From: a virus
Lineage: Duplodnaviria > Caudoviricetes
Length of the DNA: 64,000 nucleotides
Virus record (IMG/VR): IMGVR_UViG_3300022752_000014
Strand: one strand, 5' to 3'
Numbering within the stretch: position 1 is the first letter of the stretch; every line of letters starts with the position of its first letter. Below the pieces are notes generated by a model that was given only the letters and a program-made list of their open reading frames with translations, did not search any database and had not been told where the DNA came from. Below are positions 12,712 to 36,347 of the stretch, one piece after another. Made by a program: the position numbers and the translations under genes.

Positions 12712-13380
12712 ATGGCACGTATCGATCTGCATAACTTCTTTCAATTCTATGATGAAAGAAATCCTAACCACGTCAAAGCAGTTCAGTGGTTAGAGGACAA
12801 TCTCCCCGTTGAATATCTTGGTGATACTGTGGAGTGGGCGGAGATTTTTAGAGGAAAAAAGACTAGTGCTGCACCAGCAACCCCAGCTGCTGCAGCTCCT
12901 GTAACAGGTGGTGATGATGTTCCTATGATGGGCATCAAGTTGATCAAAGAGTTTGAGGGTTGCAGACTAAATGCATACCCAGACCCTCTGACTGGTAATC
13001 TTCCAATCACAATTGGTTGGGGATGCACTCGTAAGAAGGATGGTTCAGCGTTCAAGATGGGAGATAAGATTACACAAGCAGAAGCAGATGAACTTCTGAT
13101 TGAAGAATGTAAGCATAACTTTCTCCCAGCACTCAGAAAAATCCCACACTGGAGTGAAATGTCTGATGGAAAAAGAGGCGCTCTGCTCAGCTTTGCTTAT
13201 AATCTTGGTGCCGCTTTTTACGGTGGCGATAACTTTAATACTATTACTAAACGCTTGAAGAATAAAGAATGGGACTTAGTTCCTGATGCTTTATATCTCT
13301 ACCGCAATCCTGGTTCAAATGTAGAAGCAGGTTTAGCACGTAGAAGAAAGGCAGAAGGAGAAGCGTGGAAGAAAGGATAA
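12712..13380 (+). CDS. Lysozyme/endolysin (GH24) with N-terminal module
   Basis: IKEFEGCRLNAYPDP...TIGWG (E-x8-D-x6-T), ALLSFAYNLG and GLARRRKAE. Confidence 0.92.
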   Translation: MARIDLHNFFQFYDERNPNHVKAVQWLEDNLPVEYLGDTVEWAEIFRGKKTSAAPATPAAAAPVTGGDDVPMMGIKLIKEFEGCRLNAYPDPLTGNLPITIGWGCTRKKDGSAFKMGDKITQAEADELLIEECKHNFLPALRKIPHWSEMSDGKRGALLSFAYNLGAAFYGGDNFNTITKRLKNKEWDLVPDALYLYRNPGSNVEAGLARRRKAEGEAWKKG

Positions 13381-13383
13381 ATA
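13377..13383 (+). promoter_or_regulatory. T4-type late promoter
   Basis: ATAAATA overlapping the lysozyme stop, followed by a ~135-nt leader. Confidence 0.65.
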
Positions 13384-13431
13384 GTAACAATCACAACTGA
13401 TTCTTGATCTTCTGATCTGAATCTACATACC

Positions 13432-13517
13432 CCAAGTCCTCTAAGACTTGGTGAATACTTTACTTTTAAACAACTTCGGTTTGTTTTGTTTAGTACACAC
13501 TAAGTAATAGAGGACTT
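13432..13517 (+). ncRNA. Candidate cis-regulatory 5' leader with alternative pairings
   Basis: Hairpin CCAAGTC/GACTTGG (13432-13451) competes with a 9-bp pairing of AAGTCCTCT (13434-13442) to the SD region AGAGGACTT (13509-13517). Confidence 0.4.
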
Positions 13518-13520
13518 TTT

Positions 13521-15455
13521 ATGTCTTACACCACGAGGGCGCTCGCAGCAGCGTCTGCCCTTCTGCTTGGGGCTCCAACTGCAGTCTTAGCACACACCAA
13601 CTCTATCGGATATGTTGGTGGGGGAAATGGATCGGTTACCTTCTGGTATGGTAACTGGCACCCAGGAACTACCTTCAACGAAGGAACCCTAACCTTACAA
13701 GGTATCAACGGGACTAATTTTTCCGCAACAACCGTAAACTGGACTTTACTTTCATCAACAAGACCAGACGGTTTGATTAATGGTACAAACTATTTTACTT
13801 CTAATGGATCACAACTGGTTCCTTATGGAAGTAATAGTCAGGTATCATCGACTTGGCAGGGTGTAAGTTTTACTGGACTTGGCGCTGGTGATTATCAGTT
13901 TACCTATAATGCTGCTGGATCTCCAACAGTCAACTGGATGCCTATGGATAATGTTATCCTTTCCAGCACTGTAACTCTTACTGCAGCAGCTCTTTCTGGT
14001 GATGCTGATGGAGATGGTATTAATGATGCAACAGGACAACCAGTAGCACCAGCAACTCCAACATTAGTATCTTCTGCTGCTGGAACTCCTATCATCACAA
14101 CTTCAACTAGCAGCGGTTCTAGAACTGAAACCAGCACCCAAGGTAGAACTGTGATGGGTACTGATGCTAATGGTAATCAGACAGAAACTTATTATACAGA
14201 TACAGTTGTAACGACCATTCCTACAACCACAACAGTTACAACTACAACTCCAACGACAGTTGATACTTATAGTGATGGTAGTACAGTAACTACTAACGGA
14301 ACATCATCATCATCTTCATCAACTTCGGATGCGGGTTCCGGAACTTCAGTAGTTACACAGGCAAGTGTTGCTGATTGGGTAAGAACTAGAACCTATGACG
14401 TTCAGAGAACTGCATATGCTCCTTCTGGTGCAGCACCAACAGTAACAGAGACCCATCGTTTTACTGCAACTGAAACTGAGGTTAAGCAAAAAGTTAATCA
14501 TCACACAACGACTGGAGTTACAACGCCAACAGTTAGAACTGTAACTACTACACCAGTTTATACAAAGGTTTATACTAATGGTTCTCCTGATGTGGTGACA
14601 ACTGATACTGCTGTTATTACATACGAAACCAGCACATCATATGCAGAGTATTATGCATCCAGAGATTACTTTGGACGTATTGATCAACTTGAAACCCTTG
14701 ATAATATGAGCGGTGCGATTAATGGACTTTTGAATCACGAACCATCAAGAACCAAACAAAAGTTTAGAGTATTTGAGAACAATAGATTTGTTCAATCCTA
14801 TAATGCTGATGGATACTCTGCTGATAGTAAAATCTTCGGTGGCGGATTTGAGTTAGATCTATCCAAAGGTTGGACTATTGGTTATCAATACAATAATGTC
14901 AATATCAATCTTCGTGGCGTAGATTCAACTGCAAAACAGAATAAAGATGTTCACGGAATTTTTAATACATTCCACGGCAACACTTTAACTTTGAATACAA
15001 ATGCTGCGATTGCAAACAGCAAGTACAACTATTCAAGAACAGTAGAGGGTGTTTTTAACAACCAAGGAGAAACAACTGGTTCTGAGTGGTGGGTGTCTAA
15101 TAGATTATATTTACATTTGACCAAGTGGTTACATCCTTTTGTTGGACACACTGTATCTAACTTGAAGAGAAATTCTTACACTGAGTCTGGTGATGTCAGA
15201 TCAGCAAGAAGTGTTAGCGAGTTCTCACAAACTACACACGTTGGTGAAGCAGGTGCTAAACTTGAAACCAGATTTGGTGGTAAGAAGAGAGATTTATTTG
15301 GCGTAAGTGTTGAAGGTGCTTATGCAACTGATAACTCTTATGGTGTAACTGCTTCTGTTGATTATAAAGAGATGTTGATTATTGAAGGTTCTCACGGTGT
15401 AAGTGATGGTGTTACAACAAATTCCATCGCTGGAAAGGTTAAATTTAGGTTCTAA
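13521..15455 (+). CDS. Secreted autotransporter-like protein: signal peptide, beta-rich N-domain, Thr/Ser-rich stalk, C-terminal beta-barrel
   Basis: Signal peptide ending AVLA-H; long Thr-rich tract; alternating-aromatic strands ending GKVKFRF. Confidence 0.65.
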   Translation: MSYTTRALAAASALLLGAPTAVLAHTNSIGYVGGGNGSVTFWYGNWHPGTTFNEGTLTLQGINGTNFSATTVNWTLLSSTRPDGLINGTNYFTSNGSQLVPYGSNSQVSSTWQGVSFTGLGAGDYQFTYNAAGSPTVNWMPMDNVILSSTVTLTAAALSGDADGDGINDATGQPVAPATPTLVSSAAGTPIITTSTSSGSRTETSTQGRTVMGTDANGNQTETYYTDTVVTTIPTTTTVTTTTPTTVDTYSDGSTVTTNGTSSSSSSTSDAGSGTSVVTQASVADWVRTRTYDVQRTAYAPSGAAPTVTETHRFTATETEVKQKVNHHTTTGVTTPTVRTVTTTPVYTKVYTNGSPDVVTTDTAVITYETSTSYAEYYASRDYFGRIDQLETLDNMSGAINGLLNHEPSRTKQKFRVFENNRFVQSYNADGYSADSKIFGGGFELDLSKGWTIGYQYNNVNINLRGVDSTAKQNKDVHGIFNTFHGNTLTLNTNAAIANSKYNYSRTVEGVFNNQGETTGSEWWVSNRLYLHLTKWLHPFVGHTVSNLKRNSYTESGDVRSARSVSEFSQTTHVGEAGAKLETRFGGKKRDLFGVSVEGAYATDNSYGVTASVDYKEMLIIEGSHGVSDGVTTNSIAGKVKFRF

Positions 15456-17626: not shown

Positions 17627-18316
17627 TTATTTGTTGTGAGCTTTCCTGTATTGCTCTAACTTTTGTTTCTTGAACTCTTTCTTTAAAATCTTATTGACTT
17701 TCTTTTGATGTTCATAGGCAAAGAATAGTTGTAGCTCATAGTCAGTTACATCTCTATTCAATGCCTTTTTGATTTGTGCGAATATTCTTTCAACAACTGG
17801 CTTGAATTTCTTTACCATCCATTCCACCAAAGATTTGCCAACAAGAGCCGCAGCAACAGAAGCAGTAGCAGTGGTGCCAGCAAGAATAACCTGCTCTTTA
17901 GGTGGGATGGGAACTTCTCCGACGATTGGTACTTCAATGACGGGTACTCCTAGGTTTGTATTAGGTGTATTAGTTTCTTCAGCGATATTTTTATTTTCTT
18001 GTTTATCAATAACAGGAATTTGAACTTGAGGGACAACTGGTTTTGTATCAGGAAGTCCTCTATGTTTTTCTTGTTGTTCTTGTGTTTGTTTTTCTCTTTC
18101 TGCTTTTACAGCAGCATCGAACTCTTCCTGCGTTGGGACATTAACGGTTGGATACTTGATCCTTGTATCTGGCATCAGAATCACAGGAAGTTCCATACCG
18201 CGAACAACAGGAACTTCTACACCTTTATTGACTGGTGGATTGATTGTTGGTATTATGTTAGGTCCAGCAACATTAATATTTGGAGAATTAATATTACTTA
18301 TTGGTTGTATTTCCAT
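17627..18316 (-). CDS. Hypothetical Pro/Val-rich protein with a C-terminal TM segment
   Basis: ORF track gives 17627-18325; ATG at 18316 overlaps the upstream gene. Confidence 0.65.
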   Translation of the reverse strand: MEIQPISNINSPNINVAGPNIIPTINPPVNKGVEVPVVRGMELPVILMPDTRIKYPTVNVPTQEEFDAAVKAEREKQTQEQQEKHRGLPDTKPVVPQVQIPVIDKQENKNIAEETNTPNTNLGVPVIEVPIVGEVPIPPKEQVILAGTTATASVAAALVGKSLVEWMVKKFKPVVERIFAQIKKALNRDVTDYELQLFFAYEHQKKVNKILKKEFKKQKLEQYRKAHNK

Positions 18317-25873: not shown

Positions 25874-25920
25874 TACGTTGATCACAAAAGTGACGGAAGT
25901 ACCAAATGGGAAGCAACGCA
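25874..25920 (+). ncRNA. Glutamine riboswitch (glnA-class aptamer)
   Basis: CGTTG-A-TCAC-AAAA-GTGA-CGGAAGTA-CCA-AA-TGG-GAAG-CAACG gives P1 CGTTG/CAACG, P2, the E-loop strand CGGAAGTA, P3 and GAAG, in the same order as the cyanobacterial glnA aptamer. Confidence 0.85.
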
Positions 25921-25950
25921 CCAATACCCACAAAGTAAAGGAGCAAACCA

Positions 25951-36158: not shown

Positions 36159-36347
36159 ATGGTCCATATGGACCTTGAGAATTATTTCCGTCTTAACTTT
36201 TCTTTGATGCAATACCATAAATATTCTTTATGGGAGATTGAAAATATGATTCCTTGGGAAAGGGATGTATATGTCGCATTATTACAACAACATCTTGAAG
36301 AAGAAGAGTCAAAACAAAGACAGCAGATGAGCAATGCCCAATTCTAA
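36159..36347 (+). CDS. gp51: Baseplate hub assembly protein gp51
   Basis: LENYFRLNFSLMQYHKYSL...MIPWER. Confidence 0.9.
   Translation: MVHMDLENYFRLNFSLMQYHKYSLWEIENMIPWERDVYVALLQQHLEEEESKQRQQMSNAQF

Follow-up and report, generated by a model that had tools for sequence, protein, structure and literature searches.

What does a late gene of a T4-like cyanophage do with a long, strongly folded 5' leader that runs up to its start codon, and does such a leader act as a switch, as a mask or as something else? The question arises from a 64,000-nt stretch of DNA (here called the window; IMG/VR record IMGVR_UViG_3300022752_000014), the source of which is a T4-like, Kyanoviridae-like cyanophage from a lake; among phage-collection records it comes closest to two freshwater Synechococcus phages, DSL-LC02 (identity of 76% across 1.2 kb) and DSL-LC03 (72%). 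A leader fills the 140 nt that separate its upstream neighbour, a gene for a GH24 lysozyme (12712-13380; PF00959), from a 644-aa open reading frame (ORF; 13521-15455, + strand) for a predicted secreted protein with an autotransporter-like C-terminal barrel. A sequence-only reading of this locus had proposed that a 9-nt strand complementary to the Shine-Dalgarno (SD) sequence alternates between masking the SD and forming a local hairpin, gated by a ligand, by temperature or by a small RNA (sRNA). Our results favor a model, to which we assign a probability of roughly 0.5, whereby a conserved cis-acting 5' leader keeps the late autotransporter-like gene translationally masked by default; the gene would thus probably be off unless the mask is lifted.

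The complete leader has a minimum free energy (MFE) of -44.4 kcal/mol, against -26.6 +/- 3.7 kcal/mol for 200 dinucleotide shuffles, none of which was as good (z = -4.84). It consists of a small 5'-proximal hairpin, P1 (13399-13423, + strand; 5 bp + 4 bp with a 4-nt loop, 98-99% of cells paired in 33 sequences), and a single long rod, P2 (13425-13524; ~34 pairs, ~-34 kcal/mol), and the fold in the window has neither a junction nor a ligand pocket. At the base of P2 the start codon is taken up in TATGT (13520-13524), the partner of ACATA (13425-13429; helix 3, 98% paired). The foot of the 5' arm is the masking strand, or anti-SD (13434-13443), which pairs with 13508-13517; the middle and upper part of this arm (13446-13459) pairs with 13492-13505 (helix 6, in which 95% of cells are paired and double changes affect two pairs), forming by folding the helices 13446-13453/13498-13505 and 13456-13459/13492-13495, and a dispensable apical hairpin with one bulge (13467-13483; 81% paired, no covariation) lies on top. 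The 3' arm (13492-13517), which folding, inverted repeats and alignment agree on, holds AGAGGA (13509-13514), 7 nt before the AUG and a plausible SD because an SD-like motif is present in ~30% of the window's genes; a U-tract, TTTTT (13516-13520), lies between the rod and the AUG. An inverted-repeat search returned the same rod as 26-nt arms (13434-13459 with 13492-13517, 81% complementary) together with a local pairing of 13427-13438 with 13445-13456.

The motifs named in the sequence-only reading, and the leader behind a late promoter, all lie where that reading had placed them. The 9-nt pairing itself is exact, AAGTCCTCT at 13434-13442 being the full complement of AGAGGACTT at 13509-13517; taken alone, a 9-mer match of this kind is borderline by chance (an estimated ~0.04-0.1 expected in 145 nt), and as a description of the locus it was an understatement, since it forms only the foot of a rod of ~34 pairs that also takes in the start codon. 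Opening the region from -18 to +12 costs 18.5 kcal/mol, the highest value among 40 window genes (median 8.2, sd 3.2). A scan against Rfam gave no match for the leader at gathering thresholds and noise only at E <= 10. A leader peptide was considered and rejected, the candidate TTG/GTG frame from 13448 to the TAA at 13505-13507 being broken by 1-3-nt indels among close relatives.

The rod is conserved, covaries, keeps a fixed position at the start codon and accompanies one gene only. A protein query against viral contigs gave 80 loci, and once their start codons had been located these 80 contigs and the two isolates, DSL-LC02 and DSL-LC03, provided 53 distinct leaders. The rod is found in all 53, with 21-39 pairs and a stability of -25 to -42 kcal/mol at 37 C, and its 3' end in every case either extends to the AUG or falls short of it by no more than 6 nt. 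DSL-LC02 and DSL-LC03 have leaders of the same fold (z = -7.3 and -4.5), and in DSL-LC02 a compensatory change affects the SD/anti-SD pair itself (SD AGGAGA with TCTTCT). The + strand folds better in 41 of the 53 leaders (mean -41.0 vs -34.8 kcal/mol), with the two strands of the window nearly equal, and this advantage lends only modest support. In two MAFFT alignments made without fitting to structure, the pairs were maintained by compensatory changes: among 33 long leaders (alignment A2) 95.9% of cells are paired, with 32 double-change cells against 7.1 expected, a covariation score equalled by none of 500 shuffles, and slid controls 30-42% paired; among 17 SD-less leaders (alignment A3) 94.4% are paired, again with 0/500 shuffles reaching the score. 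A covariance model built from A2 finds one copy in the window and, at each locus, only the copy before the autotransporter-like gene, even where the upstream gene differs, and it recognizes the other subtypes at the correct place. In the alignment to this model, which is fitted to structure and therefore leans towards it, 93.6% of cells are paired in the plus-strand rows, with up to five pair types per position, and the P1 pairs switch type between subtypes.

The architecture is carried by at least five sequence-unrelated versions of the rod arms, namely a window-like version with AGAGGA, a GTCACGGA type, a type with a UUCG-containing arm, an LC03 type and an SD-less type, and from one subtype to another the leader is exchanged for a different sequence even though the proteins stay 60-70% identical. 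Common to all subtypes are ~15-20 or more near-continuous pairs at the base of the rod; the internal loops and the apex vary, and the apical hairpin is missing in DSL-LC03 and in subtype C. The pairing of the AUG through ACATA/TATGT is kept in subtypes A, B and D and lost in the SD-less subtype C. The SD-less type comprises 17 distinct leaders that keep the rod and have the purine-rich strand on the 5' arm. Anti-SD is thus too narrow a label; the conserved feature, found in 53/53 leaders, is a helix at the start site. P1 and the upper rod have high sequence conservation within subtypes A and B, and a motif GATCTGAAT(C/T) in and after P1 (13399-13429; also in the loci L002, L067 and L082) is kept though the rods differ completely, and may be a binding site. 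At SD-less loci of the L024 type (e.g. L024:2387-2503), the 5' hairpin has a stem, TGAGTTG/CAACTCA, that nearly repeats the rod foot, and four segments could pair in a chain. A longer chain of five alternating segments, e1-e5, was rejected for subtype C: with a T4-like start ~6 nt after the promoter motif e1 would be untranscribed, and the 5' hairpin of this subtype is therefore taken as e2:e3, which the covariance model aligns to P1.

The masking strand has a second partner, as the sequence-only reading had noted. In a local hairpin of 7 bp with a 6-nt loop (13432-13451), CCAAGTC (13432-13438) pairs with GACTTGG (13445-13451), so that the masking strand is bound to the next segment of its own arm and P2 is excluded; such a mutually exclusive hairpin is present in the window and in relatives. 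Among the 33 long leaders it is 96.9% paired with one-sided changes only (A-U, G-U and G-C at one position, A-C never), the analogous local pairing of the SD-less group is invariant or wobble-only, and in 52/53 leaders the rod's 5' half gives a better fold than its 3' half. When the nascent transcript was truncated after the 5' arm and the self-pairing energy of that arm was compared with that of shuffled arms, the result was significant for the window (p 0.007), L030 (0.007), L062 (0.003), L060 (0.027), L067 (0.04), L082 (0.033), LC03 (0.007) and L080 (0.023). With a longer prefix that includes the upper 3' arm the combined p is only 0.026, a weak value because the upper 3' arm competes for the partner of the hairpin. 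The local hairpin is thus real in the window and recurrent in most subtypes with differing sequences (e.g. UUCG-capped in L067 and L082), and it is not universal.

In a series of growing transcripts the local hairpin is part of the best fold at nt 59-116 and is then replaced by the rod as the SD emerges, the two folds being nearly tied at lengths of 113-117 (-24.0 vs -24.4). In the full leader the rod state lies 12-20 kcal/mol below the local-hairpin state, and the refolding barrier, a computed estimate from findpath, is 4.4-9.2 kcal/mol in seven representatives, low as expected because strand displacement starts from an existing helix. By usual rate estimates refolding would take milliseconds to ~1 s, shorter than or similar to the time until the start region has fully left the polymerase. 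The energy difference and the low barrier together make the hairpin a transient intermediate and not a second stable state; neither a balanced two-state switch nor a thermodynamic two-state sensor is accordingly supported. A translation timer of the kind known from phage MS2 is possible and would be weak by this estimate; a hairpin that merely guards the 5' half of a long-range helix fits equally well.

The leader begins at a late-promoter-like motif, GATAAATA (13376-13383, + strand), which overlaps the stop codon of the lysozyme gene, lies 137 nt from the ATG at 13521 and resembles the cyanophage late-promoter consensus NATAAATA (PMC2984593). From T4 spacing, the transcript would start near 13389-13390. 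A match to NTAAATA marks the 5' edge of all 53 distinct leaders, ~145 or ~105 nt before the ATG, and is retained also where the upstream gene differs. In the window leader the sole NTAAATA is that at 13377-13383, ~50 nt 5' of the 5' arm of the rod, with no copy inside the leader, and no sigma-70-like site was called on the + strand within it. An internal late promoter in the apex, comparable to the bypass of T4 gene e, was rejected, since the candidate TTTTAAACA differs from TAAATA and is not constant in relatives (TTAACAA, TTAACAT, CTAAAACA). Other NTAAATA motifs of the window lie 19-32 nt from their ATG and precede unstructured leaders; long and structured leaders behind this motif are limited to the rod leader and the leader of psbA, a PhotoRC-II RNA (RF01717; 19762-19855) that the Rfam scan of the window returned together with a glutamine riboswitch (25874-25922) and two tRNAs. 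Two further NTAAATA motifs, at 36217-36334 (+) and 32996-32909 (-), have leaders longer than usual (110 and 80 nt) and of moderate stability (-19.9 and -17.1 kcal/mol).

The 644-aa ORF gave no Pfam, PHROG, NCBIfam or PDB sequence match. A protein model based on 35 homologues, of moderate confidence (pLDDT 67.6), begins with a signal helix and a beta domain at the N-terminus; a disordered stalk rich in Thr, a helix (389-403) and a beta-barrel (415-640) follow. In Foldseek it matches the NalP translocator (E 1.6e-9, TM 0.78 by target) and also EstA, EspP, BrkA and Hbp. A signal peptide, a passenger, a linker helix, a 12-strand C-terminal barrel and an aromatic last residue (...KFRF), the features of type Va autotransporters, are all present, and the gene therefore appears to encode an autotransporter-like outer-membrane protein beside lysis enzymes. 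It is plausible that a protein that would have to pass through Sec and BAM late in infection is kept scarce or tightly timed. The homologue of L055 has 172 aa through an early stop, and that of L066 has 740 aa, ~90-130 residues above most others.

In our model of the default-off leader, late transcription would start a few bases after GATAAATA and the nascent RNA would form P1 first, after which the 5' arm of the rod is predicted to fold back as the local hairpin. The emerging 3' arm would then displace this hairpin by branch migration and zip into P2, in which the SD and the AUG are paired and only a short U-rich spacer stays free. Because both elements are held in P2, the finished messenger RNA (mRNA) would be a poor substrate for 30S binding, and protein output would be very low unless the rod is opened or cut. 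The local hairpin would be a co-transcriptional intermediate that either protects the 5' arm while its partner is still to be made or, at the most, opens translation for a very short time. The anchoring of the rod to the AUG in every relative, the pairing of the AUG in three subtypes and the position of the SD, where present, in the stem point to translation as the level of control, and the earlier view that the dominant fold hides the translation start is supported, in the window and in its relatives, as a property of a conserved cis-acting RNA. We infer that masking lowers translation in vivo and that something may relieve it.

Several observations weigh against this model. The covariation of the local hairpin is no better than that of shuffles (49/500), with no double changes in the within-group alignments, and the shuffled-arm test was not significant in L024, L021, L079, L008, L014, L001 and L022. 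The SD-less subtype C keeps the rod, so that selection may act on the double-stranded rod and not on the masking of an SD; ~20 or more continuous pairs exceed what masking needs; and the conserved U-tract that follows a stable hairpin is equally compatible with a terminator. Finally, it would be strange for a gene with its own promoter to stay masked permanently if there were no activator, and we found no activator. A bolder version is a kinetically decided gate, working through attenuation or through unmasking that depends on cleavage or a helicase, which a phage or host factor opens late in infection; we put this forward tentatively, as possible but doubtful.

How far, then, do other explanations go? 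One is that the leader is an intrinsic terminator or attenuator, in which P2 and the U-tract stop most transcripts from the late promoter, and read-through from the lysin genes, at the AUG, the local hairpin serves as antiterminator, and a factor or the kinetics of the polymerase decides between them. A stable hairpin is directly followed by a U-tract, as in a terminator, and this tract is present in all 53 leaders, where positions -9 to -1 hold a mean of 5.3 T (never fewer than 4); the mean for 40 window genes is 2.75. Kinetically controlled attenuators set a weak early hairpin against a much stabler late one, and the leader has this design, with a low barrier and near isoenergetic folds at 113-117. 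Against this, the SD lies in the stem and the AUG is paired, so that a read-through mRNA would refold into the masked state and antitermination alone would give no protein; a terminator would also not need the fixed distance of 0-6 nt between rod and AUG, and a scan for the hairpin-plus-T-run pattern does not call P2, the stem and loop of which fall outside the range of the scan. We regard attenuation as a possible, minority explanation.

A second explanation is double-strand-specific processing, in which host RNase III or another double-stranded RNA (dsRNA)-binding protein recognizes the ~20-bp helix, and cleavage frees the start region and/or leaves protective hairpins. There are precedents for RNase III cleavage in the intergenic sites of T7, in the lambda N leader and in E. 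coli adhE. The near-continuous dsRNA of ~20 bp or more that the enzyme needs is present, the leader has more pairs than masking needs while its internal loops and apex are unconserved, and processing would supply the activator that a default-off leader lacks. The fixed position at the AUG and the pairing of the AUG are explained by masking alone, however, no conserved internal-loop cleavage motif was seen, and cleavage is a conjecture here; we consider this account improbable as a whole.

Third, the leader could be a true sensor, in which a ligand, temperature or a trans-acting RNA shifts the equilibrium between the open local-hairpin state and the closed rod. Two mutually exclusive pairings do exist, and a binding site could lie behind the high conservation that P1 and the upper rod show within subtypes A and B. 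The rod is nonetheless favored by the 12-20 kcal/mol given above. Gating as a riboswitch does not agree with a fold that has no junction or pocket, with wholesale replacement of the sequence between subtypes or with the absence of any Rfam match at E <= 10, and as a thermometer the rod, at -25 to -42 kcal/mol, is far too stable to melt at physiological temperature. Gating by an sRNA or by a protein is possible, though nothing that we found points to it. A candidate trans partner, TAGAGGACTT, a second copy in the window of a 10-mer from the SD arm, occurs exactly at 18053-18062 (-), in a minus-strand ORF, and could pair with the masking strand; it is probably a chance match, extending only to an 11-mer with the preceding A, and it has no counterpart in DSL-LC02, where the covarying 11-mer is matched exactly by the leader alone with no second copy. 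A sensor is therefore very unlikely. Fourth, an independent sRNA of ~135 nt that merely abuts the gene would have the anatomy seen here, with a late promoter, P1 and, ~135 nt from the promoter, the terminator-like P2 and its U-tract, and it is hardly credible for an element that is always found with the autotransporter-like gene at a fixed distance, contains that gene's SD and AUG, and has no conserved single-stranded seed region that we could see.

With 53 distinct members and strong covariation, the leader defines a candidate RNA family for which Rfam has no entry. At least five versions unrelated in sequence have been kept, each time with the same gene family, which suggests a need for very low or tightly timed amounts of the protein and some means of opening the mask. 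If the gate is indeed decided kinetically, it would be the first described class of cis-regulatory RNA to set the timing of a late gene in T4-like cyanophages, and the transient hairpin would be its decision element. The leader is present in two cultured phages, DSL-LC02 and DSL-LC03, which makes these ideas testable at the bench.

Our literature searches returned no description of a comparable cyanophage leader, and the leader thus appears to be a form of start-site masking absent from Rfam and from the literature searched; its parts have counterparts in several known systems. RNase III-dependent unmasking of ribosome sites is known from the lambda N leader, from the alternative structures of lambda cIII and from E. 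coli adhE. In these leaders, as in ours, a stable helix with about two turns of dsRNA occludes the ribosome site. The PhotoRC-II leader of psbA is similarly long and strongly structured behind NTAAATA (165 nt, -44 kcal/mol), whereas it belongs to another structure and family and ends ~38 nt before its ATG, so that the start region is not reached. In RNase P and SRP RNA, a long-range helix has its 5' half protected by transient hairpins (Wong et al. 2007, cited in PMC4615214), and as predicted for the cyanophage leader the 5' strand is sequestered until its 3' partner has been made and is then displaced; unlike the leader, these RNAs are non-coding and, according to that citation, depend on pause sites. 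The 5' untranslated region of the maturation gene of the levivirus MS2 forms a metastable hairpin, with the final fold taking minutes in vitro (PMC4615214). There, too, an upstream complementary strand pairs with the ribosome site over a long distance and a hairpin transcribed earlier ties up that strand. The two are not homologous, the slow conversion to the inhibitory fold in MS2 is not matched by the computed barrier of 4.4-9.2 kcal/mol and toehold-type displacement in the cyanophage leader, where any window would be very short, and the cyanophage hairpin is not significant in every subtype. Finally, leader hairpins over the start site are a classical device of T4; its genes e, soc, 49 and I-TevI have hairpins that mask the start region (PMC3014915), and the resemblance extends to a T4-like phage, an SD and/or AUG in an intramolecular helix, a late promoter nearby and an adjoining lysozyme gene. 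The cyanophage rod is much longer. The late promoters of these T4 genes are placed inside the DNA of the 5' strand or beyond it, so that late transcripts lack this strand and are translated (PMC3014915), while in the cyanophage the NATAAATA motif precedes both arms, with ~50 nt between it and the 5' arm. Thus the late promoter bypasses the mask in T4, whereas the late transcript of the cyanophage carries its own mask.

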